Source: a virus. From it: a stretch of 64,000 nucleotides of DNA. The position numbers were made by a program, and so were the translations under genes. Shown piece after piece: positions 19,657 through 59,089 of the stretch. Within the stretch, counting starts at the first letter, position 1. Every line of letters starts with the position of its first letter. The stretch is from the IMG/VR virus record IMGVR_UViG_3300045988_109836, one strand, 5' to 3'. The notes beneath the pieces are model-generated. The model searched no databases. It had not been told where the DNA came from and saw only the letters and a program-made list of their open reading frames with translations.

Positions 19657-20149
19657 ATTCAGCCATCAATAAGGAATCTGCAAAGTTATCATCATCCTTT
19701 AAACTTCTATTTGTTCTTTTTAAGCTCACATCCGGAAAAATACGGTGTGCGGCAACAATACTCATTTTCTTTACGTCCTTTACCGTCTTGGTTCCGTCAT
19801 TCTTGGTTACCATCTTTATACCTTTGTGCATGTCTGACTGCCATTTCTTGGGCGGTATCTTTGTATAGGGTAATCCGGCAATTGCACAAAAGAATTCCGG
19901 CACGCACGAATTATAACCGAACGTAAACGTTCCTTTTGCCGAAGAACCATACAGTGCATGCACGTCCTCTATCACGACGTGCCGGACCTCGTAGCCTTCG
20001 ACAAAAGCAAGCAACCTGTTTGCCGTCTCTATCATATCCACTACCTTGATATCCCTAAAGATAGGTTCTGCCTTGATAAAAGACCCGTCTTCCGCAATCA
20101 TTGACACAAACCCCTTTGTTCCAGGGTCAAATCCCATAAATACTTTCAT
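19634..20149 (-). CDS. RuvC-like Holliday-junction resolvase
   Basis: Motifs GFDPGTKG, VVIEDV and DDNFADSLLMAEYG, giving the acidic catalytic pattern of RuvC-fold resolvases. Confidence 0.7.
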   Translation of the reverse strand: MKVFMGFDPGTKGFVSMIAEDGSFIKAEPIFRDIKVVDMIETANRLLAFVEGYEVRHVVIEDVHALYGSSAKGTFTFGYNSCVPEFFCAIAGLPYTKIPPKKWQSDMHKGIKMVTKNDGTKTVKDVKKMSIVAAHRIFPDVSLKRTNRSLKDDDNFADSLLMAEYGRRHFK

Positions 20150-20150
20150 T

Positions 20151-34402: not shown

Positions 34403-34467
34403 CAAAGATAAGATTATGTTATGACATACGCAAGTGCTTATGTCTAAATCATCTCTGTTTTAACATC
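34403..34467 (-). promoter_or_regulatory. conserved promoter-family copy 5
   Basis: -7 box TATCTTTG (34403-34410), palindrome at 34423-34444, and a GTTAA box inside the 3' end of the helicase gene. Confidence 0.65.
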
Positions 34468-36181: not shown

Positions 36182-36248
36182 CAAAGATAATATTATGTTA
36201 TGACATACGCAAGTGCGTATGTCTAAATTGTTAGTTATTTAACATCAT
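36182..36248 (-). promoter_or_regulatory. conserved promoter-family copy 6 (most perfect palindrome)
   Basis: -7 box TATCTTTG (36182-36189). The palindrome GACATACGCA-ct-TGCGTATGTC (36202-23) has perfect 10-bp arms. Confidence 0.65.
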
Positions 36249-40169: not shown

Positions 40170-40243
40170 ATTCGAGATAATATTTGTGTATGTCTGACCC
40201 GATTAAGAAAGGGAGCTTTCATACTCCCTTATCAATCACACCA

Positions 40244-40310
40244 CAAAGATAAGATTTGTTTATGACATACGCAATAGCTTATTCCCAATAAAATTGCATA
40301 TTTAACATTT
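40244..40310 (-). promoter_or_regulatory. conserved promoter-family copy 7 (degenerate palindrome) at the structural/early boundary
   Basis: -7 box TATCTTTG (40244-40251) and half-conserved palindrome (40264-40285). A GGGAG/CTCCC hairpin lies in the leader (40211-40228). Confidence 0.5.
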
Positions 40311-41715: not shown

Positions 41716-44700
41716 TTAGAACCATGACGGATGTTGTTTCTTGTAATCTTCGTAACTGAACATCCTTGTACATCCTGCAAAACAACCGTTTCCATCAATT
41801 CTATCTATAGAAGGGAATCCAATTTGTGCGCCGAATATTCTACCTAAATCAAATATCAAAGGCATATATGCGGCTAGTAATGTAGCGCCGCCTATCTTAC
41901 CAACCCATCTCGGCTGTGCCGTCATACTTGAACAGTCTTTAAACGTATTTACACAATTAAATACATGTTTCAAAACGCCGGATTCTATAAAAGCATTAAG
42001 TCCGCTTGAATTTGTTACATCACCAAACGTGTATTCTGATGTCTGTAAGTTACTACACCCCTCAAACATACTTTTAATGCTTACCGATACAGAATGTCCC
42101 GGTGGTGTAACGGGGTTGCCTTGTGAACCTGCTGTTCTCAAATTAATACACCCACTGAAACACTCTACATAAGTATAACATTCCGTCGATTCTGAAAACA
42201 AAGAAGATGTTATCGTTGTTAGTCCACTATTCTTAAACATTGCTAATGCACTAACTATGTTAGGAATTATTACCCCACTCACATTCAACAGACTGCTGCA
42301 CCTCTCAAACATTCTGTCACAAAACACTCTGTTTGCACTAAAATTAAATGCACTTGAACTTATACTTGTCAAATTTTCACATTCATAAAACGCCTGAGCC
42401 ATCGTTAATTCCTGTACAGAGCCAGAAAACATATTAGACGGAAGAGAAGATATACCGGAATCAATACAAAATGCGTTTGCGACTTGTCTTTTCCCCGAAA
42501 AATACTTGAATACTATTCTACAAGGAGATTGTAAATTAGTACAACCGCTAAACATATATTGGCAACTACTTATGTTTAATGCGCCTATATCGTTACTTAT
42601 ACTTGACATTCCTGTACATTTAGAAAACATATAATCCAAGAATGTTCCATTACTTGATGTCCTTAATTGTCCTTGTACCGAAGATATACCCTTACATCCG
42701 CTAAAACAATAGGAGTAATCGTTTATTATACTTCCTCCAAGTATGCTTGACAAATTTATGGGACCACTCAATCCGCTATCCTTATATGTCTGCACGAATG
42801 TACCACTTGATACAAACCCAAATAATCCTTCTGGTACGCCTTTCAGACTTGAACATCCCTCAAAAAAAGAATCGGTAGAACCGCTCATTAAACTTGTAGT
42901 CCAACTTACAACCGAATAGAGGCTGCTGCAATTCTTGAACGCCCCTTTATTCCACGAAGTCCTTACATCTTCCACAAACCATTTTATTACCTTTGTCAAG
43001 CAATTCTGGAAACCTGCAAAATTAGAAGCACTCCATGACAAATTAGCCTGCATGCCGTTAAAATCAAACAAAATTATCTTCGTTCCGCTTGAATTATAGG
43101 TGTGTGAGCTTGTTCCTATTGTCTGCTCGCCGTCACCCCATTTTACACGCAAATTGTTAAGTCCTGTAGAGGTTGTATTCATCACCGGAAGTGTCAAGTT
43201 CATACCATTTGACACAAGAACCTCCAATACCGCACCATCTTCCATCGTGATGTTGATTGTCTTTTGAAATTCTTCCGGACCTACCGTATAATTTCCTCTT
43301 TCCGTAAAATAATTCTGACTTGTAGCTACCCACGCATAGGTATCGTTACATGGCACAATCCATGATACAGAACCGGAAGAGCTTGTTACTCCAGAACTTA
43401 CATTGTCCTCTATAGTCACTCCAGAAATAGGAGAGCCGTTTTTGGTACGCACATTATATGTCACCTGGCATTTATTCCTCGGCATCGTAACATTAACATA
43501 TACATCATCATCTTGTACACTCACAGCGCCATTCTGGCTTTGATATCCTGCTTTTGTGGTCTGCCAGTTAAAATTGCGTGGCGGTACATATCCACCAAAA
43601 GTGGCTTTTCCGTTTGCGGTCGTATATTGTGATTCATTGCCAAGAACTACCTTCACTCTTTCGATAGGATTTCCGGTATCATCCACAACCGTAAAGTAAA
43701 CCCTGTACAGATTAACGCTCAATATAATAGTCGCGTTTGTGTCCGTTTCCTCTACCTGCACAAACGTGTATCCTTGTGTATATTCCGGTAACTTGCTTGC
43801 ATAGGCGTTTCCGCTTGTTCCGGCCTCTACAATGAAAGAACACTGTCCCGTCTGACCTGTATATTGCGTTTGTCCGTTAAACGTCACCTGTGCGTTCTTT
43901 ACTACACTTCCGTATCTATCTTTCACGAAGATAGTCAGTGTTACCATCTTTACAGTAAAGTTAACCGGAACCTGTGTATTTCCATATACAGAGAACGAAG
44001 ACACCACATCGTTACAATATCTATAAGAAGCCCTGTAATTATAACTTCCGGAAACCAATTGCGTAGTCACCAAACCAAGTTCATTAGTTATTAGTGGTTC
44101 GCCTTGTCCTATAACCTCAATTTCAGCGCCAGAAGCCTGTACGCCACCAACAGAAGCGTTAAACGTCACATTGTAAGGAACCGCAGCTTTCTCACTCATT
44201 CTTATGGTATATTCATTATCACCTGCCTTTATATTGACGTTTCCCTTTGCCGGGTTATAATCCTGGTGAGACGCGCTCCACTCCCATACGCCAAGTTCAA
44301 GCGTCCAACTTGCAGCAATACCGTTATTGTTAGAATACCTCGTTTCCCCGTTTATTGTCACCACTGCATTTTGAATAGGAGCTTCTGTCTGTATATCAAT
44401 AACCTTTACTGTCAGTCTTCCCGTTTGCTTTATCAAGTCTACAGTTATTGCCAACGGCTGGTTTATGACGACTGCCGTTCCGGTTCTTGTCTCATACCCT
44501 TCTCTTGTTACGCTCCACGGATAACTACCTGGTACCCTGTTGAATACAGCGTTACCGCTCGCGTCCGTGTTGGCCGTCTGTTGTTCTTCCCCTACACCCA
44601 GGACTATAGGCTGATTCTTTACTGGTTGGTTATTTATTCTAACTGTAAATATAATGTCATAGGTTACAAGCTTCAATTGCACCTCCACACGTTTGTTTTC

Positions 44701-47160
44701 CCCATTCACCGTTACGACACCTTGTTTGGTATAATAACCTTCTTTTTGTACGGTCCAGTTGTAACCACCGGATATCCGGATAAATTGTGCCTGCCCACCA
44801 CTCGTGCTTATCGCTTCCGTTCCTATGGTAACCAAAGCATCGTCAAGCGGTGTATCGTTATCGTCCGTAACATAGAAATCAATCAAATAGCCTATCTGTA
44901 CCAAATCGACTTCTACTGTCACATCCCTATCCACGACTTCTACCGTTCCTTCTTGTCCTTTAAACTCTGTTTTTGACACCTTCCAGGAATAGGAACCTGC
45001 TATCTCCACAAACTTTGCAATACCATTACTTGCCGTTTGTAGCGTCGTGCCGTTGAAAGTAACATTCGCTTTTGCTACCGGTAATCCGTTGCTTCTCACG
45101 ACAAAGTTTATATTGTATTTCGGTATAGGATTAAATTGTATGTCTATAACCGCATTTCCGTATATGGTAAAATCCTTTTCTACGGTTATATATCCTTCTT
45201 TCACGACCTTATAATGATACGTTCCTGCCGGATATACAAACCCTGTTGCAAGACCCTGTGCATTAGAGCTTCCGGTTTGATTAGGAATATCCTTGCCTGT
45301 CACCAATACAGAGGCACCGGACACCGGGTCTACGCCATCCCTTATACGGAATGTCACGTTATAGTACGGTATCTTTTCCATCTCAATTTCTATGTTGGTG
45401 GAATCCACAATTTCCGCGTTTCTTCTTACCGTATAGTAGTCTTCGTATTCTGCCGTATATTCGTATATTCCCGGAAATACCTCGAACGTCGCTATGCCGT
45501 TTTGTCCGGTATACTGAACTTTTCCTGCAAACGTTACCTTCACGTTCTGCATCCAGTCTTTCGTTTCCTTGTCACGGACAAAGAATGTCACGACACGTTC
45601 ATAGGCAGCACCTTTCAACTGTATGTATTCTACCGCATCCTTGTCCACTAATAGAGAATTCTCTACGCTTTCAAAGTTATCGGCTTCCACCTCATAATAC
45701 CATTGTCCGCGCGGTAATATTATCTTTGCTTCTCCGTTTACATCCGTTACAAGCTCTTCCCCGTTTATTGTAATTCTCGCATTCGGTATGTACTTGTTCC
45801 GATTAGAAAACACCTTGAACAATATCTGATATTCCTCTTCTCCAATATATGGTCTTATTAATTCGCTGCCGAATATGTTCTTATATCCAACAAGGTAGTT
45901 TTTTAGGAAGGTCTCTACAGTGAATTGCTTCTGATATGCGTTGTTTTTATAATAGGCGGCTATAATATCTCTTTCCCCCAAATATCCCTGTGAAAACGGC
46001 AAATACAACGGCTTTACATGAAAATCGTAAATATATACATACGGCTGGTTGGAAGTCGTTCTTTCCTGCACGAATATCGGTGCTATATACTTCATACCCG
46101 GCTTTATTGACAAGGCACGTCCGGACGGGAAATTAAGCGCTGGCGCATTCAAAAACTTCTCGTTCGTTGACAACAGTATTCCTTTTATGTAGTAATATAT
46201 ACCGTCGTTCTTTATGTCCAGATATTCGTTTTCGTGGAACCATAGAGAGCTTCCGGTTATCTGTCCGTTCTCCAGTATACCCATAGGCAACGGTTCACCG
46301 TCTACCGTCTCATATCCTGCCACTCCAAATTTAAGGTTCTGGTTCTCTATTGCAGATACCTTTACTTGTAATGATATTTCGTATGATAAATTAGGGTCTA
46401 TGATAATAAGCTTGTCCAAGTCAACCCTTCCGTCTATACCTACAGTCTGGCTACCGAAAAAAGTCATTGCATTAAATATCTCTTCATCATCTCCGTTTTC
46501 GTCCTGGGTAATGCTTATACTTTCCGGTATCAATAGAGGGTAATTATTCAAGTCCTCTACTCCTTTTGTATATTCATACGCTTTTGATACGTTCATTACC
46601 GTATTCGTCCGGTCACATGTGGGTGAGCTATATCCCATCGCCCATCCTGTAGCTTCCGGTCTCAACAAGGCAAATATAAACTCGTCCAAAGAATTATACC
46701 TTATCAATCGCAACAACTCACCCAATATCTCACCTTCCTTGCTTATGATGTCAAGTCTTCCACGTTTTGAATATTCTTCCAGGTAGTTGTAAAATAGATA
46801 TTCCATTTGTTCCTGGCTATCTACCATATTAGTAACCAAACCTCTATTCTGGATAAACATCTCAAACAGAATCTGATTCGTGTCTATCTTCTTGTATTGC
46901 CTTGCATACAACACTATCAAAGCGAATATATGGGTTATAGTTCCCCAAAAGACACGGAAATCCTCGTTCTCTTTCTTTTTTAGGAACGTAGGCAAAATTC
47001 CCCTTCCTTCCAGTTTTTCGAGCACGTTTTCTGCCCACCGTATCACTTCCTTGTCGTTTTCCTCGAAAAAACGACTGAAAGGCAAATTATCATATATAGG
47101 TGTGGACTGGGGTAAAAATAATCCCCCACACGGGTTTTCTTTCTTTATTCTTTTTTCCAT
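41716..47160 (-). CDS. giant tail-fibre protein with about 10 Ig-like/CarboxypepD_reg-like beta-sandwich repeats and a C-terminal BspA-type LRR domain
   Basis: 1814 aa from the ATG at 47160. It has repeated modules of about 85 aa (...V.V.F.V.D....P...A.V...G...TD..G.A.F....G.Y.Y.V.K.GY...). The C-terminal repeats read F.xC.sL.s (FKNCSSLYSV, FEGCSSLKGV, FSGCTNLQSP, FYECENLTSI, FERCSSLLNV and others). Confidence 0.85.
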   Translation of the reverse strand: MEKRIKKENPCGGLFLPQSTPIYDNLPFSRFFEENDKEVIRWAENVLEKLEGRGILPTFLKKKENEDFRVFWGTITHIFALIVLYARQYKKIDTNQILFEMFIQNRGLVTNMVDSQEQMEYLFYNYLEEYSKRGRLDIISKEGEILGELLRLIRYNSLDEFIFALLRPEATGWAMGYSSPTCDRTNTVMNVSKAYEYTKGVEDLNNYPLLIPESISITQDENGDDEEIFNAMTFFGSQTVGIDGRVDLDKLIIIDPNLSYEISLQVKVSAIENQNLKFGVAGYETVDGEPLPMGILENGQITGSSLWFHENEYLDIKNDGIYYYIKGILLSTNEKFLNAPALNFPSGRALSIKPGMKYIAPIFVQERTTSNQPYVYIYDFHVKPLYLPFSQGYLGERDIIAAYYKNNAYQKQFTVETFLKNYLVGYKNIFGSELIRPYIGEEEYQILFKVFSNRNKYIPNARITINGEELVTDVNGEAKIILPRGQWYYEVEADNFESVENSLLVDKDAVEYIQLKGAAYERVVTFFVRDKETKDWMQNVKVTFAGKVQYTGQNGIATFEVFPGIYEYTAEYEDYYTVRRNAEIVDSTNIEIEMEKIPYYNVTFRIRDGVDPVSGASVLVTGKDIPNQTGSSNAQGLATGFVYPAGTYHYKVVKEGYITVEKDFTIYGNAVIDIQFNPIPKYNINFVVRSNGLPVAKANVTFNGTTLQTASNGIAKFVEIAGSYSWKVSKTEFKGQEGTVEVVDRDVTVEVDLVQIGYLIDFYVTDDNDTPLDDALVTIGTEAISTSGGQAQFIRISGGYNWTVQKEGYYTKQGVVTVNGENKRVEVQLKLVTYDIIFTVRINNQPVKNQPIVLGVGEEQQTANTDASGNAVFNRVPGSYPWSVTREGYETRTGTAVVINQPLAITVDLIKQTGRLTVKVIDIQTEAPIQNAVVTINGETRYSNNNGIAASWTLELGVWEWSASHQDYNPAKGNVNIKAGDNEYTIRMSEKAAVPYNVTFNASVGGVQASGAEIEVIGQGEPLITNELGLVTTQLVSGSYNYRASYRYCNDVVSSFSVYGNTQVPVNFTVKMVTLTIFVKDRYGSVVKNAQVTFNGQTQYTGQTGQCSFIVEAGTSGNAYASKLPEYTQGYTFVQVEETDTNATIILSVNLYRVYFTVVDDTGNPIERVKVVLGNESQYTTANGKATFGGYVPPRNFNWQTTKAGYQSQNGAVSVQDDDVYVNVTMPRNKCQVTYNVRTKNGSPISGVTIEDNVSSGVTSSSGSVSWIVPCNDTYAWVATSQNYFTERGNYTVGPEEFQKTINITMEDGAVLEVLVSNGMNLTLPVMNTTSTGLNNLRVKWGDGEQTIGTSSHTYNSSGTKIILFDFNGMQANLSWSASNFAGFQNCLTKVIKWFVEDVRTSWNKGAFKNCSSLYSVVSWTTSLMSGSTDSFFEGCSSLKGVPEGLFGFVSSGTFVQTYKDSGLSGPINLSSILGGSIINDYSYCFSGCKGISSVQGQLRTSSNGTFLDYMFSKCTGMSSISNDIGALNISSCQYMFSGCTNLQSPCRIVFKYFSGKRQVANAFCIDSGISSLPSNMFSGSVQELTMAQAFYECENLTSISSSAFNFSANRVFCDRMFERCSSLLNVSGVIIPNIVSALAMFKNSGLTTITSSLFSESTECYTYVECFSGCINLRTAGSQGNPVTPPGHSVSVSIKSMFEGCSNLQTSEYTFGDVTNSSGLNAFIESGVLKHVFNCVNTFKDCSSMTAQPRWVGKIGGATLLAAYMPLIFDLGRIFGAQIGFPSIDRIDGNGCFAGCTRMFSYEDYKKQHPSWF

Positions 47161-47239
47161 GTTGAGACACAATTAATTGCGCAGTAAAAATACGATTAAT
47201 TTTGGATATTACGAAAACAAACGCAACGAAAATACTGTA

Positions 47240-47320
47240 GAACCGTTCCACTACCTCAATCTCCTTTGTTCAAGACAGTACAATAACAATAGAGGCTCTG
47301 AAGGTAGGGGTGTGGGTGAA
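47240..47320. repeat. 81-bp inverted repeat, left copy (IR-L)
   Basis: It is the exact reverse complement of 50280-50360, verified base by base. Confidence 0.95.
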
Positions 47321-48773
47321 CAACAGAAGAGTAGAACAATATTCTACATATATAGGCATATATGATAAACCGTATAAAGGGGCTTATACTGGTGTTGTAA
47401 ATTTACCAAGTGAAGAAAGTAAATTGTATGCTATTAGTAATTCTTTTGGTATTGTATTCCCTATGTATTATAGGGATACATATATGGTTGGGTATTCTGT
47501 CTATCTGGCCAGTAGTAAATTTAATGAATGGCTTATAGCTAAGTTATATAAAGGTAATAATATATGGAGTAATAATTATCCAAATTCAATAGATGATTAT
47601 AATATTTTTGGTTTATCAATAAGTTATCCTTATTATTATTTTAAAGAAAATAATAATTCAGTAATTACATTTATTTCTTATGCAATTGACTTAAGAATAA
47701 CTTGGTATGTGATACTAATTTATGGAGATACCAGTTCTAAGTTAAGTTCATATATGTCGCAAAGATTTTATACCAGTAATGCAGTAGGAGACCAACATAA
47801 ATATTTTAATAATTATTCTGTAAAGAAATATGCTTCTGTTATTAAATGTATTCCTTCTTCAAGAGGTTATGTTTATATTTATACTATTGGAAACCACGGT
47901 AATTCTTTTTTTCGGATAATAAGAGGTGAAACATCGAATAATGGTTATCCAACTGAATATCAAATTAGTTATTTAGATATATCGGGATATCCTTACAAAG
48001 ACGAAGGTAGAGTAGAACATATGGGATGGTTAGTATTGAGAAGTGATAACGAAAAAGTGATTATTTTAGTAAAATCACAAGATAGAACATATGGAGATAC
48101 GCATGCTAAATTTTATTACGGAATATGGAAAGCGTCTGTAGGGCAATATGGAGAAAGTTTATTATCAAGTAGTAATTATAGATGTTATTACAACATTCCC
48201 TCTGCAATTACATCTGTAATAGGTGGTGATTACTGGGTATCGCCAGATTTAAAATGGTTATTCTACATATCACTAAGTGGAGCTAATTACCAAGGATTTT
48301 CTAAAGGATTACATACTATAAAAGGGTCATCAGCTCTTTTTGGAGATAATGGATGGACTGGAGTTTCTTATGAAATGGAAGGAGGAGGTACAGATATTTT
48401 AAACGCTTGTCAGAACTATTATATATTAGATGTTCAATTTAATAGCAAATCTGATAAAATAATGGTTCTTGGGAATTCTTCTAAAGGTGCATTTACAGAT
48501 GTGGAACCTCGATATAGTTATGCAGAAGGTATTCAACCAGATATAATACTTTATTTTATTTGGGTGGAAAATAAGAAAAAATTTATCAAATTAAATAGTT
48601 CTTTTATAGGAGGAGATGCGCTTTGGAATGATTATAATAACTCTATATCTGGAGGCAAAGGTAATGCCTATAAACCTTTAATCAATTTTGTAAATGGAGA
48701 AATTAACTTCATGTATCCTGGAGGGAATGAGCCGTTTAATGCGTATAGATATAATTTGAGTTTCGGAGATTGA
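47241..48773 (+). CDS. silent alternative C-terminal cassette for the 3420-aa fibre protein (no promoter or own start)
   Basis: It is the only plus-strand coding region. The frame opens right after the TAG at 47238-47240 and reads NRSTTSISFVQDSTITIEALKVGVWV through the IR, identical to the giant protein. It then diverges, and its last ~200 aa are paralogous to the giant protein C-terminus. Confidence 0.75.
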   Translation, partial: NRSTTSISFVQDSTITIEALKVGVWVNNRRVEQYSTYIGIYDKPYKGAYTGVVNLPSEESKLYAISNSFGIVFPMYYRDTYMVGYSVYLASSKFNEWLIAKLYKGNNIWSNNYPNSIDDYNIFGLSISYPYYYFKENNNSVITFISYAIDLRITWYVILIYGDTSSKLSSYMSQRFYTSNAVGDQHKYFNNYSVKKYASVIKCIPSSRGYVYIYTIGNHGNSFFRIIRGETSNNGYPTEYQISYLDISGYPYKDEGRVEHMGWLVLRSDNEKVIILVKSQDRTYGDTHAKFYYGIWKASVGQYGESLLSSSNYRCYYNIPSAITSVIGGDYWVSPDLKWLFYISLSGANYQGFSKGLHTIKGSSALFGDNGWTGVSYEMEGGGTDILNACQNYYILDVQFNSKSDKIMVLGNSSKGAFTDVEPRYSYAEGIQPDIILYFIWVENKKKFIKLNSSFIGGDALWNDYNNSISGGKGNAYKPLINFVNGEINFMYPGGNEPFNAYRYNLSFGD

Positions 48774-48785
48774 TAGTTTATAAAA

Positions 48786-48818
48786 AGCGTCCATACCAAT
48801 TAAAAAAGTATGGACGCT
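48786..48818. terminator. bidirectional rho-independent terminator at the centre of the invertible segment
   Basis: 11-bp stem AGCGTCCATAC/GTATGGACGCT with T-runs on both strands. Confidence 0.75.
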
Positions 48819-48826
48819 CGTTTTAT

Positions 48827-51800
48827 TTAATCATTAAAAGTAAGAGAAGCATAATATGCTGTCGCATTCTCACTATACGATGGATAAACATAACTCATAT
48901 CCCATGTGTTCCCTAAATAATTCTGGTTAATACTAAAGAATGGTCTCAATTTACCACTTCCAGAAGCGTTATATTTGTTCCAGAAATTAGTAAATCCTAC
49001 TATATTATATGGTATATTTATCCATTTACCACCATTTAGCATTTCAAAACAAAATATATTAGTAGGATGTATACCTTCTACATAGGAATTAGCAATAATC
49101 GCTCCTCCTTGTGCTCCCTTTTGTCCATTACAGAGAACAATCATTTTAGAACCATCTTTATTAAATATAACGTCAAGAACATAATAATTAGCAAGAGTGC
49201 TTCTTAATTCTGATACAAAGTTATCATTAATAGTTATTGATGTTGCAGCCCAGCCGTTTTCATTAACTAAAACGGAAGTGCTTCTTACTATATTTATTCC
49301 TTTCGACGCTCCCCCAGAACCCTTGCCAACATAAAACATAAATCTCTTATCTTTTGACATCCACACATTACCTCCCATATTGTTAGTAATAGAAGAAGGT
49401 ATGTTATTGTAACAATGCCAATATTGCAAACTACTACTACCTTTTATATAATTCCATGTAGAAGAACCTTTCCATACCAATACATAAAAATCAAAAGTTA
49501 GATTTTCTTCTGAAAAAGTCTTTTGAGGGCCGTATACAAACAATATCAATTGATGTTTGGACAGATTAATATACACTCTCTTGTAAAAGAATATATTGAT
49601 TTTTCTTCCAACAGTAGGCCCATTAACTTTTAAGCTATAAGAACTCATAGAAGAGCCGATATCCCAAGATTGAAGTCTTATACTAATTTGATTGTTATTA
49701 TTTGGTGTTTCGGGTATCGCAATTATTTCTTGACTATTAATGCTTTCATTAATTGAATTCACTTCTTCTTGTGTTACTAAAACACATAAAGAATTACGTA
49801 CAGAATAATTATTACTATTTTGAAATACTGAACCTAAAGTGCTATCATTATCGCCTTTTACATAATTTAAAAAGCCTTTTCTTATATTCAATTGCCCCCA
49901 TGTTAACCTATTTGCACCACTAAATCCACAACATACGTAGTTCAAGTTTTGAAAATCACCATTAGAAGAAGGACTTAAATAAAAACTACCTTGTATATGA
50001 CTATATCCATACAGTCTATATGAACCATTCGCTCTATTAGAATCAAAAAATGTTGAAACTCCATATACATTAGGGGAGTCAACGAAAAGAGAAGCTACCG
50101 TTTTTAGATTTATCATCTCTAATTCATTTACTTTACTGGGGTCATATGTCAATACAGCTGCACACGAACTACTTGGATATGTCTTATTTGCCTCTATAAC
50201 TGGTTCTACATATAACCCAGAATACGAATTTTTACGAGATGTTGCGTCTCTTCCGAAATTACTGCTGCTAAATTCGTCCTTCACCCACACCCCTACCTTC
50301 AGAGCCTCTATTGTTATTGTACTGTCTTGAACAAAGGAGATTGAGGTAGTGGAACGGTTCGGATAATTAAAGTTTCCTGTTCCTGTTCCTCCCCATGTCG
50401 TGCTTCCTCCAGCTTCCCACCAGTAGTTACCCGGCTTTATCTTCAAAACTACCTGTCCGCTCGTGTTTGTAGTGCCGCTGTATGATGTACTACTGTTGTT
50501 GCTTGACAACTTCACTATTACACCGCTTCCTACTCTTGAACCTGTACTCACGTTGTTTACGTTTATTGTTATCGTTACTTCACTCGGTGTCAAATTGATT
50601 GTCAAACCTCCTGTGTTATTGCTTGTCGTATTTGACGTGACGTATCTTGTAGCGGTTACTACATATCTATTTGTCAGTCCAGATACGTATACAGTTGCTT
50701 GTCCTGCGCTGTTTGTCGTTACTGTCTGTGTTGCATGTCCTGCACCTACTTCACCAGAAGTCTGGTAACTACCATTTATACCGTACATATTTATTGTAGC
50801 ACCACTTACAGCCGCACCTGTATAAATATTCCGCACTATCACCGTCATACTCTTTATTGCAGTAGAATAAAATGCTGTAGCGTCACTGTTATGTCCTATA
50901 TTGCTAAAATTATAATTAGGAGTGATGGAATACGGTGTTTCGGTTGTCGTTGTACCTGTCACGAAATAATTCGCCAATTTTGCCGTTATCGTTGTAGTAA
51001 GACCTGCTATCCATGTATATGTAGCCAAATAATACACTACGTTATTTGCCGTCAATGATACTGTTGTTGCTACTCCTGCCGTTGTAAATACTGGCTTTAC
51101 CAGATTAGCAGTTCCCCACCATCCTAATACTGGCGTCGAAAATGGTATTTTTAGCCTAAATTCTGTACCTACACTCTTCGTCAATCTTACCGCATTCTGT
51201 GTAGTAGTTGCCAAAGGCATTGTTATCGTCGTGCTTCCGGCTACCCAATAACTCGTACCACCACCCCATGACAATGTATATGAACCTACTATCATTGGAC
51301 CGAATGACACTTGACCGCTGCTGTTCGTCGTTCCGGAAAATGTAACAGAAGAAAGGCTCTTGTTCGTCAACGTTACCGGACATCCGTTCGCATTTCCTTT
51401 TACTGCTCCTTGATAGTAGTCCTTTATGGTGAATGTTATAGAAGAACTTGTCTCGCTCATTTTCAGACTGTATGGGCTTGCCTGTCCTGCTGATAATGTA
51501 CCGGATAACGAATTATAATTCGTTTTTGAGAATGAGTAGCTTCTTCCGATACCACTCCTGTATGCAGTCCAGTTACCGCTACTGTCTGTCGTTCCTGTCT
51601 GTCCGAAATAGGAACATGATACACCGCTTATGTTTGTTCCATAATTAGAACTCTTTATATTGAATGTAAGACGTGCAGTTATATTGAGCGTCATTGTCCA
51701 GGATTGATTTTCAGATACCCACGTCCATTCTTGGCTTGCATTACTATAGTAACTTGCATAGTTTTTCGACGTATAGGTGTAATTAATACCAGCATATACA

Positions 51801-54800
51801 GTATTTGACTTTTTACCGCTTCCGTCCAACGTTATTTCTCCTGCCGGGGCATTTGAACCAGTAGGTACACTTCTTACTATCACCGCCCCACTTAAAGGAT
51901 AAGTGGCGGTAATGTTTGGAATTTTCTCTACAACCGTCAATGTCACCGTCCTTGTCGTTCTGTTCATCGTCACTGTATAGGGTGATGTCTGTGTGGCGGT
52001 TACTGTTCCTACATAGTTATTGAAATACTGTGCCGTGGCAGTCATTTGTCTATCAAGTCCACTTCTGTAAAAATCTCCTCCAGATGCTTTTGTCTGTCCG
52101 AAATAGGTGATTGTTCCCAAAAGCGCATTACTTGTATTGTAAATATTTGCTACCGTATTAATAGTTATCTTCTGATTACAAGCCAGCCATACATTTATAA
52201 GTTGCCCTGCTGATGTATAGGTAATCTTCTGGCTCGCATTGCTGTAATAATTCGGTCTTGTTACTGGTGATATTGTAATAGGTGTACCAAGATAAGTCAC
52301 AAAAGATACACTACCGTTCGCATCCAACGTTAACGGACTTGTAGAAGCTGCTGGACTGAAATTCATCTTCATAGATGAGTATTGTTCCATTGCAAAATTG
52401 ACAAATGTATCTGTTCCAGAAGCTGCCTTTCTTGTTATTTTTACAGCATTTGAACCACTGCTATTGTTATATACATTTACGTTATTCATCCCTTTATCAA
52501 AAAAGAAGTCTCTATAGGCGTTTAGTATCTTGTCATAGGTACATTTACTTAAAATTGTAGCATCTGACGCATTTTGTACATTACTTCCAGTTATGTCGTA
52601 TACAGTAGCCATTTCGAGATACCATGTAACTGGTCTGCTTCCGCCATTCAGATAAAAGAAGTTGGTTGTTGAAAAACTTCCAGTAGAACCACATCTTACA
52701 TAATAGGCATAAGTATACCATCCCCCTGTTCCGTTTCCATTATTAGAATCAACCCATTTTCTTACTGTATTATCTCCTGTTGCATTACTTGCAAAAACCA
52801 ATTGTCTTCCTGCCGGAACCTTTGCTCTGAAATATGCTACAAATTCCTTGTTTGCTGCTGTTGGTGTACCAAGATAGAAGCCGCCTAATCCAGGCGTTAC
52901 GGCAGAACTTGCATCCGTAGTGATTTCAAGCATATATTTAGGAGTGACTGGTATAACTTCACTTACCGACAAACTTACTGTAGCGGTTGAACGTGTCATT
53001 ACTACATTGAAAGGTGATGCAGTGCTTGACGTTATACTGCCTCTGTAATTGCCGTGATAAGTGGCTGTAACATCTACGTTTCTTGTTACAGAACTTCTAT
53101 ACAACGACACATTACCGCTGCTGTCTGTCTTTCCCGTCTGATGGAAATATGATACCGTAGCTCCACTTAGATTTGTTCCACTCGGCACATTTGACTTGAC
53201 GTTTATAGTTATCTTTGCCGTTACCGTCAAATCCATAGTCCATGACTGGTTGGCGGCTGTATAGGTATGTTTCTGTGTCGGATTGCTGTAGAAGTTCGGA
53301 TGTCCTACTACTGTAAACGTCATTTCCGTACCTATATATCCGTTGAATGTCACTGCACCGTTCGCGTTCGTAGTAAGTGTTCCGGTTGTACTTCCTGCCG
53401 TGTATTTTATCTGCAAGTTCTGATAATAGGTTGTCTGTGCTGGCGTTACTTCTCTTACTACAAGTGTAACCGGATTGGCTGCACGTGTCATTATGATATT
53501 GAATGGGTTTGGTGAGTTGTAAGCTATCTGTCCGGTATAGGATCCCAGATTTGATGCACTTACTGATATATTACGAGTGTTAGCACTCCAATATAATACT
53601 GCATTACCGCTACTGTCTGTTGTCTTCGTTTGACTGAAATAAGTTACTGTAGCTCCCGACACATTCGTTCCAGGCACGTTGTCCTTCACATTTACAGTTA
53701 TCTGTTTTGCACAAGTGAGATTCATGTTCCATTTCTCACTGGATGTAGTAAATATATGTGTTTGTTGATAATTCGTGTAAAACGGTCTTCTGTCCGGTGC
53801 TGATATGGTGAATGTGATGGGAATACCTAAATATGCCTCAAAAGTGTTTTTACCTGCATCTACTGTTCCATTTCCTGCTGCGGATGTATAAGCAAGTGTA
53901 AAGTTGGTATTATTGTCAAGAATTACACTCGCACCACCTGGTATCACTTCATATTGCTGCACTGTCACTACATGTTTGTTTCTCAACATAGTAACATTAA
54001 GCGGTGAAGCCGTGGTAGGTGCAATGGTTCCATTTACTGTACTATAATCGTCCTTGTCAAGCGAATACTCTTTACTCAATGCAGACCTGTACAACGAAGC
54101 GTTGCCGCTCGCGTCCGTCTTCACTATCTGTTCACTGTACGCAACCGTTACACCCTGGATATTCGTTTTCGCATATACATCTTTTACATTTACAGTTATC
54201 TTTGCAGTCACATTCAAATCGAACTTCCAGATTATACCGTCTTCATTCCATGTATACTTCTGTGTTGGGTTACTGTAAAAGTTAGAGTAGGAATCAGTCG
54301 TGAACGTGTATTCGAGACCCTTAATCAATAACTCGTTCGTATATCCGTTCTCATCCAATGTCAATTTTATTGTTCCTGCCCTGGAAGTCATTGTTACAGT
54401 CTTATTTGCAAGAAACGCTCTTCCCGCTGTACCGTATATTTCCGATACCTGTATACCTGCGTTAATCAGTTCGTATTGTACTTCTACATCCAACACTGTG
54501 CCATTCTCATTCTGCGGATGTATGAATGTATCTGTAGTAACTTCACCTGCAAGTACGGAATAGGTGTAATTACCTATCGGAACATTCTGCATCGTAACTA
54601 CACCGTTCGCGTTCGTTTCACCCTCAAACACGAGGTCTTTCAATACAGTGTTTTGTATTCTTACCAAAATTCCGTCCGGTGGTAAAACTCCTTGTGTAGA
54701 AACATTGAACGTTACCGGATATGACTTTGCAGCCAATTCTATATCCATTCTCGTTTCCGAACCCGTAGGCTTGAAATTCCCGGTCTTGGTTGTATAATAT

Positions 54801-57800
54801 TGCTTACTTGCACTGTAAGACATATTTACTGGAGACAGATACATATACACTATCCCGTCTGTATTTGTCGTTTGTGTCTGATTTACAGACATTCCGCTAA
54901 ATACAACCGTTACTCCACTCAATTTCCCGTACAAGTCGGAAATCACATATACCGGAATTCTCTTTGAACATGTATATACAAGGTCTTTTGTATTCGCATC
55001 TCTATAATTGATTATAGCTGTTGTACCGTTGCCGGAATAGAATCCTACTGGCTGCACCTGGAAACGTTCTGCAATCCCTGCATATACTGTTTTTGTAAAT
55101 TGTCCGCTTGCATTCGTCGTTACGTTCACACCGGAAGATGTACTATTGTCGTTGTAATAGCATGCAAGAACAAGACCTGTCTTTACCGGATTTGATGCTG
55201 TAGTCGAAATAGAGGGTATTATTTCTTTTACCGTGAATGTGACTGATTTTGTTCTTCTTGTTAATACTGCTGAATGTGTCTTGTCCGTAGGCAGATAGAT
55301 GTTTTCTGTCTTGCTGTTGAAATTACTGTTTCCTCCTCCATAGGTTATCGTATAATTTCCAGGCGGTATATTGAAATTTCCATTTCCTTGCGATATCAAT
55401 TGTCCGCTTGCATTCGTTGTTCCAGAAAAACTATATGCTTGTGAAGATGTTCCACCCCATGCACTCGTAACCGTTACCGGACAACTTTCTGCTGCTTTTG
55501 AATAGGGATTATTTGCTGTCAACGTCAGACTGAATGTCATTGCAGCATAACCCATGATTATATCTATATAGTCAACCGACAACGGGGGTGTAAATGTTCC
55601 GGTCTTTTTCGTATGGTCTGCCACTGTACACTCGTAGCTCATTGCGATAGGTGAGATATACACTCTTGCTGAACCATCACTTCCGGACGTAACGGTTTGA
55701 GGCAGTGACATTCCGGACACCTTTATAGTCGCATTTTCAAGCGGTCTTAGAGTGTTCTGCTGTTTTACTCTTAATTCAAGTCTTTTTGAAGCTGTTATTT
55801 CCATGAGTGTAGGTACACTCGCTCCGAAATCCCAGTTCTTAATCAGCAACCCTTCGTTCTCATAGAAGCCTTTCTGTTTGATTGTCAACTGATAATCAAT
55901 ACCTGGCATTACTTCCGGAAATATCTTGCCTTGTGCGTTTGTCGTATATTCTTTTACTGTACTATTGTACATATTTTTTACTGACACGACAATTCCTGCT
56001 TTTACCGGATTGAAATTCAGTGCAGCCTTTTGTTCTGCCACTATCTTAACGGTTACCTGGCTTACTGGTGTTGTTATCGTCACATCCACATAGAAAGACC
56101 TTGCAGCCGCATCACGTGTAGTGTTCGGCTGCACTGTCAGTACGGAACCCTTAAATGATGCTATATCGTCACTTGACACGTTAAACGTCAATTCTGCGCC
56201 ACCATCTGCAAAATTATATGGTTCGTCCTCACCGCCTAACTCTACCCGTCTGAATGTCTTTATATAGTCCATCAAGTCAAACGTTGCCCCTTTGTTGGGT
56301 ATGATTAGGTTTTCGGGTGTATGGACTATATAATAATAGCTATCGTTCGACAACGTTTCTGCCGTATTCTCACCATTGAATCTTACTGTCGTCGCGTCAC
56401 CAGATACACCAGGTATACTTTCGATTACATCTACTTCCGGCTCTATCTCCTTTCTCGTCATAGTGAAAGGAAGTTCTATGTCTTTCAGCTTTTCAAGTGT
56501 TACCGCCTGGTTTTCTACCGCATTGTAATATCTATGCGAAGCGTTCCAAGTATATTCCCCCGCCTCTGCTCCAAGCAACAACACGCCTATATCGTTCGTA
56601 TAGCCGGAATCCACCTTTATTCCCGTACCCTTGTTTATCAATTCGATATATACTCCAGAAATAGGGTCTTTTGTTATTGCGTCTGTCGCAGTGTATGTTA
56701 TTACCGTGTCCCTCAACTCTAAAAAGATTGTTTCGGGTACATCCTGGTCCTTAATAGTCACCGTTCCGGTATATCTCTTGTAATTTCTGTGTGTTACCGT
56801 ATATTCATAATCACCATTGGGTAATGTTATACTCGATACACCATTGACATTCGTTATATGCGTTTCTCCGTTAATCTGGATTTCCGCACCTTGTATGTAG
56901 TTACCGTTCTCTATGTCTCTGACAGTTAGTCTGAATGTATAGAATGCCTGTTCAAGTTCAATTATTTTTGATACCTCCGTACCATCCACAACAACGAAGT
57001 CGTTGACCGACATATAACCGGACTTAAAAGCGGTATATTCGTATGTTCCATTAGGAAGGCTGACAATCGCCACACCTTCTGAATCTGTTAAATATGTCGA
57101 TTCGTTGATTTTTATTGTCGCTCCTTCCAACACCATTTGTGTTGCCGCATCCAATACGGTAAACTTTATGGCATACGGAATCGCGGTCATTTCAACAAGT
57201 ATACAATTAGGGTCTTCTGCCGTTACCTCAATCTCCTTGTTGAGTTCTTGGTAGTCCTTTTTTACTACCTTCATTTCATACCTTCCTGTCTGCAATCCGA
57301 TTGTTGCCTGCCCTTCCTTGTCTGTTGTCTCTGTAATATCCTTTATGATAATATCGGCTTCCGGAACATAAATATTTCTATTTCTGTCTATTACAGCAAA
57401 ATTAACTTCCTTGGTTGTAAGAAACATTCTTTGGAATACCTCTACTGGCTGGTTTTCTACTGTAAAAACACTCTCTATAGTTTGAAAACCTGCCTTCTCT
57501 AAAGTGTATTCGTATATACCAGGTTCGAGACTTATTGTCGCTGTTCCGTCCTCTCCTGTTTCAGATGTGTAAACACTTGTCTTTACCGTAACACCTTGTA
57601 ACGGTGCTTCTCCTTCATATACAGTAAACGTTACTGGATAAGGTGTTGCAACAAAATCGTTTATATTTATGTATATAGGGTTGTTCAAAACCACAAACTC
57701 ACCCTTCTTTTGAGTCCAGTTCGTTTTTGAAAGGATGTATTCATATTCCCCGTTTTCGAGAAGAATGTTTGCCGTACCGTTACTGTCCGTAATGATTACC

Positions 57801-59089
57801 TTGTTTCCTATTGTTATATATGCACCCGGTACGGCTACATTCTTGGTATTTGTCACTGTAAACGAACACAAATATTTCTGTGACGCTATGACTGATTGCG
57901 ACCCTTTATATATATCACTTTCCCCTGCCGGATAGAAAATATTGGATAGACTGCTTCCCGAATCATACAAGATGTTTCCTTCCAAATCTCGCATTCTGAA
58001 ACCCTTGATACGCGGCAACATGTTCAAAGGAACCTCTTCGTCAAAGTAGGGGAAGAAGTATTCATCTGGTACATATTTCACGCCTTCTGCTGTCTTCACG
58101 ACTTCCAACAAATCATCCCATTCTACCTTTTTACCTGCTTCCCAGAAACGGAAATCAAGATATTTTGTCATTGCAATCTGGATATTTTTTCTTACATCCG
58201 CAATCACTGCATTAGGTGACAATTCCACACGGAAATCTACCCCCTCTTCACCACCTACATACATCCATTTTGCATTTTCAATCACTATTCCAAGCGTATT
58301 CCCTTGCAAGTCAAGTTCTGTCAATCCGAAATAGGGTGTTGCTTTTGTCAATAATTCTTCCAATTCATCATCCGTAAAGAAAGAACCGTTTTGCGTCACA
58401 AGGTAGATATGTGTCTTTCCATCCTCGCCCAAACCGACATTCATAACCTTTAGAATGCGTGAATCCAAATCCTGGAATATCTGTGTCCAGCCTTCCATTG
58501 TATCGGTGGAAAGCTTGTTGTTGTAATTTATTATTCTGTTTCTGAATGTCTCGTCGTCCTCATAGTCACGTCCACCAATAGCTGCGTATTCATTAGTGCA
58601 CTCTATATGTGTCAACGGTCTTGGCGATACCTCTGTAATACTATTCGCCTCCACATTCGTAGCCGACCCGGTTATAACACTGCGTACACTGATATATCCA
58701 TATCCCGACTTATCAACAGTAAACGGCTGGTCTACAATGAATTGTACTCCATTCTTTGATATAAACTTTGTGCCTACCTCGTACTGTGTACCTGGTTCAG
58801 CGAATACACGTACATAAGTAGAGGAACCAAGCGCTTCTTTTCTCGGACTGACACCGAACAACGCTGCCGACTTGTCAAGATAATTTCCTGTTGCCGATTT
58901 CGGGAAAATCTGTGCCTCCACTATGGCAATATCCTTTATCGCTTTTTGTGCCACCTTTGCGGTGCCATAGGCAACACCATTAAGTACAGAACCGTCCGCA
59001 ATATTTGAAACACGGTCGGTCTTGTTCAAGAACATTTCAATCCACAAATTTTTTAAATTTGCAATCGTATTCGCTGTTTTAGTAATCAT
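48827..59089 (-). CDS. 3420-aa baseplate-J-like/tail-fibre fusion protein (currently expressed variant A)
   Basis: An uninterrupted ATG ORF. The N-terminal ~400 aa are collinear with baseplate J/gp6-type proteins (...GSVLNGVAYGTAKVA..., ...AIGGRDYEDDETFRNRI...). Many Ig-like repeats follow, then tandem modules of about 165 aa, then the variable C-terminus. Confidence 0.9.
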   Translation of the reverse strand: MITKTANTIANLKNLWIEMFLNKTDRVSNIADGSVLNGVAYGTAKVAQKAIKDIAIVEAQIFPKSATGNYLDKSAALFGVSPRKEALGSSTYVRVFAEPGTQYEVGTKFISKNGVQFIVDQPFTVDKSGYGYISVRSVITGSATNVEANSITEVSPRPLTHIECTNEYAAIGGRDYEDDETFRNRIINYNNKLSTDTMEGWTQIFQDLDSRILKVMNVGLGEDGKTHIYLVTQNGSFFTDDELEELLTKATPYFGLTELDLQGNTLGIVIENAKWMYVGGEEGVDFRVELSPNAVIADVRKNIQIAMTKYLDFRFWEAGKKVEWDDLLEVVKTAEGVKYVPDEYFFPYFDEEVPLNMLPRIKGFRMRDLEGNILYDSGSSLSNIFYPAGESDIYKGSQSVIASQKYLCSFTVTNTKNVAVPGAYITIGNKVIITDSNGTANILLENGEYEYILSKTNWTQKKGEFVVLNNPIYININDFVATPYPVTFTVYEGEAPLQGVTVKTSVYTSETGEDGTATISLEPGIYEYTLEKAGFQTIESVFTVENQPVEVFQRMFLTTKEVNFAVIDRNRNIYVPEADIIIKDITETTDKEGQATIGLQTGRYEMKVVKKDYQELNKEIEVTAEDPNCILVEMTAIPYAIKFTVLDAATQMVLEGATIKINESTYLTDSEGVAIVSLPNGTYEYTAFKSGYMSVNDFVVVDGTEVSKIIELEQAFYTFRLTVRDIENGNYIQGAEIQINGETHITNVNGVSSITLPNGDYEYTVTHRNYKRYTGTVTIKDQDVPETIFLELRDTVITYTATDAITKDPISGVYIELINKGTGIKVDSGYTNDIGVLLLGAEAGEYTWNASHRYYNAVENQAVTLEKLKDIELPFTMTRKEIEPEVDVIESIPGVSGDATTVRFNGENTAETLSNDSYYYIVHTPENLIIPNKGATFDLMDYIKTFRRVELGGEDEPYNFADGGAELTFNVSSDDIASFKGSVLTVQPNTTRDAAARSFYVDVTITTPVSQVTVKIVAEQKAALNFNPVKAGIVVSVKNMYNSTVKEYTTNAQGKIFPEVMPGIDYQLTIKQKGFYENEGLLIKNWDFGASVPTLMEITASKRLELRVKQQNTLRPLENATIKVSGMSLPQTVTSGSDGSARVYISPIAMSYECTVADHTKKTGTFTPPLSVDYIDIIMGYAAMTFSLTLTANNPYSKAAESCPVTVTSAWGGTSSQAYSFSGTTNASGQLISQGNGNFNIPPGNYTITYGGGNSNFNSKTENIYLPTDKTHSAVLTRRTKSVTFTVKEIIPSISTTASNPVKTGLVLACYYNDNSTSSGVNVTTNASGQFTKTVYAGIAERFQVQPVGFYSGNGTTAIINYRDANTKDLVYTCSKRIPVYVISDLYGKLSGVTVVFSGMSVNQTQTTNTDGIVYMYLSPVNMSYSASKQYYTTKTGNFKPTGSETRMDIELAAKSYPVTFNVSTQGVLPPDGILVRIQNTVLKDLVFEGETNANGVVTMQNVPIGNYTYSVLAGEVTTDTFIHPQNENGTVLDVEVQYELINAGIQVSEIYGTAGRAFLANKTVTMTSRAGTIKLTLDENGYTNELLIKGLEYTFTTDSYSNFYSNPTQKYTWNEDGIIWKFDLNVTAKITVNVKDVYAKTNIQGVTVAYSEQIVKTDASGNASLYRSALSKEYSLDKDDYSTVNGTIAPTTASPLNVTMLRNKHVVTVQQYEVIPGGASVILDNNTNFTLAYTSAAGNGTVDAGKNTFEAYLGIPITFTISAPDRRPFYTNYQQTHIFTTSSEKWNMNLTCAKQITVNVKDNVPGTNVSGATVTYFSQTKTTDSSGNAVLYWSANTRNISVSASNLGSYTGQIAYNSPNPFNIIMTRAANPVTLVVREVTPAQTTYYQNLQIKYTAGSTTGTLTTNANGAVTFNGYIGTEMTFTVVGHPNFYSNPTQKHTYTAANQSWTMDLTVTAKITINVKSNVPSGTNLSGATVSYFHQTGKTDSSGNVSLYRSSVTRNVDVTATYHGNYRGSITSSTASPFNVVMTRSTATVSLSVSEVIPVTPKYMLEITTDASSAVTPGLGGFYLGTPTAANKEFVAYFRAKVPAGRQLVFASNATGDNTVRKWVDSNNGNGTGGWYTYAYYVRCGSTGSFSTTNFFYLNGGSRPVTWYLEMATVYDITGSNVQNASDATILSKCTYDKILNAYRDFFFDKGMNNVNVYNNSSGSNAVKITRKAASGTDTFVNFAMEQYSSMKMNFSPAASTSPLTLDANGSVSFVTYLGTPITISPVTRPNYYSNASQKITYTSAGQLINVWLACNQKITINTVANIYNTSNALLGTITYFGQTKASGGDFYRSGLDRQMTATAQYFNNYVGTVTATQTSPYTVTMNRTTRTVTLTVVEKIPNITATYPLSGAVIVRSVPTGSNAPAGEITLDGSGKKSNTVYAGINYTYTSKNYASYYSNASQEWTWVSENQSWTMTLNITARLTFNIKSSNYGTNISGVSCSYFGQTGTTDSSGNWTAYRSGIGRSYSFSKTNYNSLSGTLSAGQASPYSLKMSETSSSITFTIKDYYQGAVKGNANGCPVTLTNKSLSSVTFSGTTNSSGQVSFGPMIVGSYTLSWGGGTSYWVAGSTTITMPLATTTQNAVRLTKSVGTEFRLKIPFSTPVLGWWGTANLVKPVFTTAGVATTVSLTANNVVYYLATYTWIAGLTTTITAKLANYFVTGTTTTETPYSITPNYNFSNIGHNSDATAFYSTAIKSMTVIVRNIYTGAAVSGATINMYGINGSYQTSGEVGAGHATQTVTTNSAGQATVYVSGLTNRYVVTATRYVTSNTTSNNTGGLTINLTPSEVTITINVNNVSTGSRVGSGVIVKLSSNNSSTSYSGTTNTSGQVVLKIKPGNYWWEAGGSTTWGGTGTGNFNYPNRSTTSISFVQDSTITIEALKVGVWVKDEFSSSNFGRDATSRKNSYSGLYVEPVIEANKTYPSSSCAAVLTYDPSKVNELEMINLKTVASLFVDSPNVYGVSTFFDSNRANGSYRLYGYSHIQGSFYLSPSSNGDFQNLNYVCCGFSGANRLTWGQLNIRKGFLNYVKGDNDSTLGSVFQNSNNYSVRNSLCVLVTQEEVNSINESINSQEIIAIPETPNNNNQISIRLQSWDIGSSMSSYSLKVNGPTVGRKINIFFYKRVYINLSKHQLILFVYGPQKTFSEENLTFDFYVLVWKGSSTWNYIKGSSSLQYWHCYNNIPSSITNNMGGNVWMSKDKRFMFYVGKGSGGASKGINIVRSTSVLVNENGWAATSITINDNFVSELRSTLANYYVLDVIFNKDGSKMIVLCNGQKGAQGGAIIANSYVEGIHPTNIFCFEMLNGGKWINIPYNIVGFTNFWNKYNASGSGKLRPFFSINQNYLGNTWDMSYVYPSYSENATAYYASLTFND
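50280..50360. repeat. 81-bp inverted repeat, right copy (IR-R), inside the 3420-aa gene
   Basis: It is the exact reverse complement of 47240-47320. Confidence 0.95.

Follow-up and report, generated by a model that had tools for sequence, protein, structure and literature searches.

The window analysed here, a 64,000-nucleotide (nt) stretch of IMG/VR virus record IMGVR_UViG_3300045988_109836, comes from an uncultured phage of Bacteroidota of about 104 kilobases (kb), which has no integrase and is apparently lytic. Positions 47240–50360 of the window, which close the 3′ end of the gene for a baseplate-anchored tail fibre of 3420 amino acids (aa), probably form a gene-splicing module that can invert, a reading to which we assign, from the sequence, a probability of about 0.75. 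It is carried by the anatomy of the segment, by the homology of the two cassettes that lie in it in opposite directions, and by the occurrence of the same cassette types, and of near-identical modules, in both states among relatives. In the proposed switch, one cassette (cassette B) would in the present orientation be spliced after residue 2936 and expressed, and the other (cassette A, 47241–48773) would be a spare, most probably not made as part of a virion protein before a flip. Reciprocal recombination between the flanking repeats would flip the segment and join cassette A to the promoter, the start codon and the 2,936 N-terminal residues, with a switch of receptor or host specificity as the likely consequence.

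Anatomy of the repeat-flanked segment

The segment, about 3.1 kb long, is bounded by an 81-nt inverted repeat whose left and right arms, IR-L (47240–47320) and IR-R (50280–50360), are 100% complementary; the window holds no other long perfect inverted repeat. IR-R is part of a giant minus-strand open reading frame (ORF) of 3420 aa (48827–59089). The constant part of this giant tail/baseplate protein (50361–59089, minus strand) supplies residues 1–2910, to which the repeat adds 26, close to the roughly 2900 constant N-terminal residues given in the first-pass annotation. A Baseplate_J domain (PF04865) occupies residues 68–194 (59.6 bits against a Pfam gathering cut-off of 21.1), and CarboxypepD_reg/Ig-like repeats lie C-terminal to it. 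The gene sits among tail genes: upstream is the gene of a tail-tube initiator-like protein, and downstream that of an 1814-aa tail protein with CarboxypepD_reg repeats (41716–47160, minus strand), the start of which is 79 nt from IR-L. The intergenic stretch between the ATG of this downstream gene (at 47160) and IR-L (47161–47239) ends ...CTGTA|G.

Cassette B (type 3; 48827–50359, minus strand, stop TAA at 48827–48829) is the fused C-terminal head and presumably the expressed one. Cassette A (type 1; 47241–48773, plus strand) is the non-fused alternative head, with a variable part that begins at codon 27 (47319). Both measure exactly 510 codons from repeat to stop, are homologous over their full length (29% identity, BLASTP E 9e-39) and share an identical codon phase on the two repeat arms. 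The fused side reads ...NYP(CCG) NRSTTSISFVQDSTITIEALKVGVWV KDEFSS... and the non-fused side TAG NRSTT...GVWV NNRRVEQY..., the first base of the repeat being the G of TAG on the IR-L side and that of CCG (Pro2910) on the side of the 3420-aa ORF. Translated in the cassette frame, IR-L gives (N)RSTTSISFVQDSTITIEALKVGVWV, and the junction peptide earlier put forward for cassette A fused to the constant part, ...ALKVGVWVNNRRVEQY..., is what the sequence encodes.

The earlier description of the cassette A frame also holds in that a TAG in frame with it (47238–47240, plus strand) lies on the outer boundary of IR-L, after which all 510 codons are open from 47241 to the TGA at 48771–48773. A TAG exactly at this edge is insignificant when taken alone: since the repeat fixes the G and just 'TA' is needed, we estimate that it would arise by chance in about 10% of cases in AT-rich intergenic DNA. 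A 510-codon open frame in DNA of about 30% guanine plus cytosine (GC), together with a perfect 81-nt repeat, is far beyond chance. The flanks of the segment have about 42% GC. The plus-strand GC skew flips its sign exactly across cassette A, where alone it is positive on the plus strand, indicating that cassette A truly codes for protein, on the opposite strand from the other genes; it is the sole long plus-strand ORF, against more than 60 minus-strand genes. The convergent stops of the two cassettes are separated by a 53-nt spacer. A hairpin in this spacer (48782–48818; ΔG −22.4 kcal/mol, z −6.2), with a 9-nt loop and U-rich tracts on both strands, was overlooked by a consensus terminator scan and from its sequence looks like a bidirectional terminator.

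The cassettes have no match in Pfam. An AlphaFold model of the cassette, built from 30 homologues, is all-beta, with a predicted local distance difference test (pLDDT) score of 68 and a predicted template modelling (pTM) score of 0.77. Foldseek relates it only to generic beta-propellers, at template modelling (TM) scores of 0.2–0.37 (GH43 enzymes, sialidases, a PL24 lyase and paramyxovirus attachment heads). From the model we may reasonably infer that the cassette is a distal glycan-binding or glycan-cleaving head; the 24 repeat-encoded residues are predicted to be disordered, as would suit a linker. GTDB representative bacterial genomes yielded no relative of the cassette family, INPHARED phages no match by megablast and tblastn, and Rfam nothing in the window.

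Cassette types and orientations among relatives

Searched with an alignment of cassette homologues, IMG/VR yielded 31 loci of the same architecture, in relatives of about 105 kb. In 16 of the 31 the homologue of cassette A lies behind a TAG; in 13 it is joined in frame to an upstream run of more than 2,666 open codons. When the cassettes of 27 genomes were clustered, they fell into 10 types, 27–48% identical to one another, and each type with three or more members was found both fused and silent. Type 1, that of the plus-strand cassette of the window, is fused in 5 genomes and silent behind a TAG in 11, which strongly supports the earlier proposal that cassette A is a variable arm of the Sv/Sv′ kind and not an independent gene. 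These sequences point to a lineage-wide pool of at least ten exchangeable head types.

Whole modules are likewise found in both states. Three pairs of relatives carry near-identical modules in opposite orientations: L027 and L029 (99.2% over 2,965 nt), L024 and L026 (98.9%, with a downstream flank that is 100% identical) and L006 and L009 (96.8%). The type 1+3 module of the window aligns end to end with a flipped counterpart in L010 (79%) and with unflipped ones in L011, L007 and L008. A perfect repeat of 44–86 nt stands at the same place in the relatives, its arms about 3 kb apart and its inner edge dependent on the cassette pair (at 47–86 nt); the inter-cassette hairpin is present in all of them, with four different stem sequences. 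The TA|G is kept in all close relatives, together with a near-invariant 75-nt intergenic stretch. In a diverged lineage, L028, a TAA 7 codons upstream takes its place, and the design is retained with a 62-nt repeat and a different intergenic region. Both cassettes are intact in 26 of the 27 genomes. The right-hand silent type-6 cassette of L025, the sole disrupted one of 54, has a stop at codon 95, either because the spare is decaying or through an error of sequencing.

Exchange of cassettes between phages also takes place. A Joint Genome Institute (JGI) metagenome contig, L185, has the identical repeat and cassette B in the same orientation, with a different silent partner. Over the last 2 kb of the constant part (window 50361–52360 and equivalents) relatives are 75–89% identical in nucleotides, versus 95–99% for the module in the same genome pairs, and this greater divergence of the constant part indicates that the module moves between phage backgrounds. 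A 50-mer of the repeat was absent from IMG/VR, and a protein look-up of the exact 485-aa ORF expected from the flipped state (MKDEFSS...) found it not to be on record. A homologue search of a large protein database gave hits of uniformly about 485 aa and retrieved no giant proteins. Searching with the predicted flipped junction protein returned silent-type ORFs alone and missed the phage's own 3420-aa protein and its truncated versions of about 2,915 aa, despite 176 identical residues; very long proteins thus seem not to be retrievable from the database, and neither this result nor the ~485-aa hits say anything on fusion.

Candidate catalysts and alternative explanations

The likening of the segment to Mu in the first-pass annotation implied a dedicated invertase, for which the genome gives no support. 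We surveyed the window (Pfam and PHROGs; 51 ORFs plus two subsets), 10 kb on each side of it and, by way of a 108-kb relative, the remaining ~22 kb. These ~104–108 kb yielded neither an integrase nor an intact serine or tyrosine recombinase, though one could lie among ORFs of less than about 70 aa or proteins without Pfam matches. The phage does encode a homologous-recombination cluster on the minus strand, comprising a Holliday-junction resolvase (19637–20149), an SbcC-like protein (20154–22151), a UvsX/RecA-like protein (22136–23104) and an SbcD-like protein (23107–24132). The products of this cluster (19637–24132) are candidate catalysts of recombination between the repeat arms.

The arms themselves suggest such a route. 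They differ by 0.32 nt within genomes (20 of 25 have identical arms) versus 5.15 nt between genomes, and fall into 21 haplotypes with 24 polymorphic sites, many of them synonymous, spread over positions 11–73. This homogenisation over the whole length favours homologous recombination, because gene conversion homogenises arms and crossover at a fixed point does not. The outer edge of the repeat is the point where the coding and the intergenic flanks diverge. Speaking against homologous recombination, repeats also evolve in concert in invertase-driven systems such as the P1 C segment. We tentatively regard general homologous recombination, by the phage UvsX/RecA-like protein, SbcCD and resolvase or by host RecA, as the likeliest catalyst, at odds just short of even.

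The same switch could also be operated by a dedicated site-specific recombinase that acts at a core site within the 81-nt repeat, and this we consider a live possibility at less than even odds. The enzyme might be an invertase of the Bacteroidales host or an unrecognised phage protein; a degenerate protein of the relative IMGVR_UViG_3300045988_107958 (L044:1645–2103, outside the window and distant from the segment) might serve as a DNA-binding accessory. This protein, of 151–153 aa and 95–100% conserved in all 33 close relatives, joins an N-terminal MerR/HTH_17-like helix–turn–helix (HTH) to a Resolvase-like domain that aligns best with the catalytic domains of IS607-family TnpA. As the invertase itself it is rejected: methionine stands at the position of the nucleophilic serine and the D/R/R residues are replaced (VIYARVMN-KHN and RKSLSGTD, against VIYARVSSSDQ and KDRLTRFG in IS607 TnpA). 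Its sequence and conservation suggest a recombinase that has been domesticated and is catalytically dead.

The classical tail-fibre switches of phages, those of Mu, P1 and e14, all employ a recombinase, as does the BV01-like shufflon (PMC13596623), whereas no intact one is found in the surveyed DNA here. All close relatives share, without change, the outer 10 nt of the repeat (GAACCGTTCC, with the 9-bp palindrome GAACCGTTC), and the intergenic stretch of 75 nt beside it shows the unusual conservation that an accessory site or an enhancer, Fis-dependent in the Hin/Gin systems, might have; yet L028 lacks the outer ~15 nt of the silent-side repeat as well as the conserved intergenic stretch and keeps the architecture. 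No match to a Hin/Gin-type site (core AAACCnnGGTTT, ~26 base pairs (bp)) was found in the arms at up to 2 mismatches, nor to the Mpi site (ARACGTWCGT) of Bacteroidales invertons of the Mpi/Tsr type, a consensus that may not be that of the host's invertases. Crossover at a fixed point would, moreover, leave the homogenisation of positions 11–73 unexplained. We tentatively propose, at somewhat under even odds, that a lytic gut Bacteroidota lineage has a programmed tail-fibre switch without a dedicated invertase, in which homologous recombination by the phage's own UvsX/RecA-like machinery at the 81-nt repeat would continually flip the segment and swap heads among co-infecting phages, so that inversion and exchange would be one mechanism.

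Several points weigh against a switch with a silent spare, and the first of them concern expression of cassette A in its present place. Contrary to the earlier statement that no TAnnTTTG box lies upstream, a Bacteroidota-type box of this kind, TAATTTTG, is found on the plus strand at 47197–47204, 35 nt before IR-L, with a TTG 17 nt upstream of it; it faces cassette A from a suitable distance. The motif appears, from its distribution, to be a real promoter-like signal in this genome: intergenic DNA has 15 sense-strand matches in 4.1 kb (3.7 per kb), mostly 3–75 nt before starts, coding DNA has 0.5 per kb, and just 4 antisense intergenic matches occur in the 64 kb. Of 25 close relatives, 22 keep the box, but this conservation is not particular to it, as the whole 75-nt intergenic stretch beside IR-L is near-invariant in 24 of the 25, the adjacent coding DNA being 75–95% identical. 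This stretch may hold the promoter of the 1814-aa gene, a promoter into the silent cassette, or an accessory site for recombination. As to start codons, the GTG noted earlier inside the repeat is there, without being the only start-like codon: two in-frame GTGs (47310 and 47316) are followed by a TTG (47424) and an ATG (47463). With the box, these two GTGs make some stand-alone expression of cassette A possible.

Cassette A could then be expressed independently, additionally or instead, with transcription from the TAATTTTG box and a start at GTG 47310 or 47316 giving a free beta-propeller protein of 485–487 aa. The motif predicts gene starts well in this genome, gene callers annotate the 485-aa ORF, and the terminator hairpin lies downstream of it; yet the plus strand has no ATG between 47205 and 47361, and of those that follow the intergenic region the first (47362) falls out of frame, the earliest in frame (47463) being codon 75. 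The AlphaFold model folds from about residue 26, so that a stand-alone domain is structurally conceivable, whereas a free head would have no evident route to attachment to the virion. The ORF, moreover, starts within the repeat that it has in common with the giant gene, in the same codon phase, and relatives carry cassettes of the same types as C-termini fused to the giant protein. Where the box has been lost (L006, L019 and L025) or is absent (the divergent L028 lineage), the cassette is kept all the same. We therefore consider independent expression improbable. That cassette A is silent in the present orientation is plausible: no ATG and no upstream ORF precede it, a stop closes its frame at the edge, it is the sole gene-sized plus-strand ORF, and relatives use the same types in fused form.

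The other contrary points concern orientation. The 4–5 contigs of this exact phage in public assemblies are all in the orientation of the window, and among the compared relatives, the flanks of which differ by 0–25%, no fully isogenic pair of opposite orientation was found. Some of the through-assembled orientations could be wrong, or could reflect module exchange rather than flipping in situ. Some assemblers use k-mers longer than the 81-nt repeat and others use shorter ones, and IR-R is a frequent break point of public assemblies. Logan contigs (k=31) run into the repeat for exactly k−1 = 30 nt and a SPAdes scaffold for 78 nt, and a MEGAHIT contig that ends 53 nt into it is ambiguous. The idea that contig ends at the repeat signal mixed populations is rejected, as the Logan and SPAdes breaks follow from the assembler's k. 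The contig ends at the repeat are those of L263–L271 and position 1 of L002, and in ERZ19666779 the genome is split into pieces of 15,947 and 88,275 nt.

It is accordingly conceivable, if quite unlikely, that no programmed inversion is under way and that the arrangement is a static product of past module exchange (double crossovers in identical arms, in either orientation), of orientation errors by assemblers, or of both, the plus-strand cassette being a spare that is rarely or never used. Assemblers demonstrably fail at the repeat, but MEGAHIT k141 contigs span its 81 nt, so that at least those orientations are supported by reads. Cassette partners reassort between phages, and the silent cassette of L025 has its premature stop; against this, 26 of 27 genomes have an intact silent cassette despite the divergence between types (given with the same 27–48% that above denotes identity), which indicates selection through expression. 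The arms, moreover, are kept identical within genomes, and the in-frame design, the equal lengths and the symmetric terminator are conserved across two diverged lineages. We infer that the segment flips within populations and that cassette A is untranslated at present. Reassignment of TAG is ruled out, as 9 of 54 genes use it as their stop, the standard code suffices to keep the giant ORFs open, and a suppressor transfer RNA (tRNA) is lacking, as are tRNA genes in general.

Significance and comparison with known systems

In Bacteroidales, capsules and surface proteins vary through DNA inversion. If the proposed switch is real, an abundant uncultured lineage of ~104-kb phages has a matching counter-switch, and phages hedge their bets likewise. 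The catalogue of at least ten interchangeable receptor-binding heads, with their splice point at ...ALKVGVWV|, would be useful for predicting host range and for phage engineering. Should the switch work without an invertase, a phase-variable gene would require no more than ordinary recombination and an inverted repeat that is short and in frame, and such switches would be invisible to searches anchored on recombinases. The repeat also breaks metagenome assemblies and may mis-orient them, and gene callers label the spare head as a separate 'hypothetical protein'.

Other features of these genomes lie away from the module. Genes for TnpB/OrfB_IS605 (with a Cas12f-like TNB domain) are found at 13153–14364 of the window (minus strand) and, as a second copy, at L044:7704–8915, with no adjacent active TnpA. 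The large terminase has 704 aa with a Hom_end_hint intein in the phage of the window versus 560 aa in close relatives (L037:130–2244 versus L035:561–2243), a NUMOD1 protein adjoins the terminase, and the portal gene of a relative (L142:12084–15095) has an intein with a LAGLIDADG endonuclease. The head genes of a relative include those of a Zeta-toxin-domain protein and a NUDIX+DUF5856 protein (L142:15105–16031 and L142:18478–20340). A palindromic intergenic element, ATGACATACGCAA(C/G)TGCGTATGTCAT, recurs at 18–46, 34421–34449, 36187–36228 and 40236–40282 of the window, each copy beside a sense-strand TAnnTTTG box, and could, judging by its sequence, act as an operator or terminator for promoters of one shared class. 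At 10983–11243, two plus-strand TAnnTTTG boxes (10996 and 11090) stand in a gap by small plus-strand ORFs (10840–11064 and 11001–11243), which may be a second short plus-strand transcription unit in an otherwise minus-strand genome.

In the G segment of Mu (Sc with Sv/Sv′, and U/U′; Gin), the C segment of P1 and P7 (Cin) and the P segment of e14 (Pin), inversion joins a constant N-terminus to either of two C-terminal parts. The module described here resembles the Mu, P1 and e14 systems in being a repeat-flanked segment inside a tail-fibre gene, with two oppositely oriented C-terminal parts of which the non-joined one is without promoter and start codon; theirs give alternative host specificities. 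It differs in that no active serine invertase of the Hin/Gin family is adjacent (PF00239 is absent from the window and its flanks) and in its repeat of 81 nt, as against gix/cix sites of ~26–34 bp. Unlike in Mu, the segment contains no genes for tail-fibre chaperones (U/U′), just the 53-nt spacer with its hairpin. The constant part here is a 2,910-residue Baseplate_J fusion, in an apparently lytic Bacteroidota phage; at least ten head types circulate, and the arms evolve in concert over their whole length.

Spare cassettes without promoter or start are also found in Neisseria pilE/pilS and Borrelia vlsE, in which RecA-dependent recombination draws on a diverse pool. As is proposed here, those cassettes become active through homologous recombination with an expression site, but by non-reciprocal gene conversion, from many cassettes and in bacteria, whereas the flip proposed here would be reciprocal, between two cassettes and in a phage. 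The inverted repeats of plastids and herpesviruses flip-flop by recombinase-independent isomerisation. With flip-flop by homologous recombination the module has in common its perfect repeats, of a length sufficient for homologous pairing, boundaries that are set by the divergence of the flanks and the concerted evolution of its arms.

Closer in host is the tail-fibre shufflon of BV01-like temperate phages of Phocaeicola vulgatus, in which 1.7 kb contain three short, non-homologous cassettes with directional motifs of 10 bp, flanked by a recombinase (preprint PMC13596623, Sept 2026). Both are found in phages of Bacteroidota, and in both inversion at the distal end of a tail-fibre gene, carbohydrate-binding in the BV01-like phages, gives (here, would give) alternative C-termini. 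The module here instead has two full homologous heads of 484 aa and an 81-nt coding repeat, in a ~104-kb phage without an integrase, and no recombinase was detected. More generally, shufflons (R64 with Rci; BV01-like) have three or more cassettes with repeats of 10–19 bp, whereas here there are two cassettes and one repeat pair, and no flanking tyrosine recombinase was found. An invertible region of ~30 kb in an Anabaena cyanophage, with repeats of 400–700 nt, has been proposed to flip without a recombinase (bioRxiv 10.64898/2026.02.14.705889). That region is likewise a segment flanked by perfect repeats, with both orientations among close relatives and no dedicated invertase identified, and homologous recombination has been discussed as its cause; it flips large blocks of genes without splicing any, whereas the 81-nt in-frame repeat here would re-splice one structural gene. 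A 2026 paper describes its candidates as the first putative invertons from gut metagenome-assembled viral genomes. Inversion that splices tail-fibre genes is thus known in itself; what is new is that it would operate with no invertase detected, through an 81-nt in-frame repeat, on a 3420-aa Baseplate_J fusion with at least ten propeller heads, in a ~104-kb Bacteroidota phage of lytic type.

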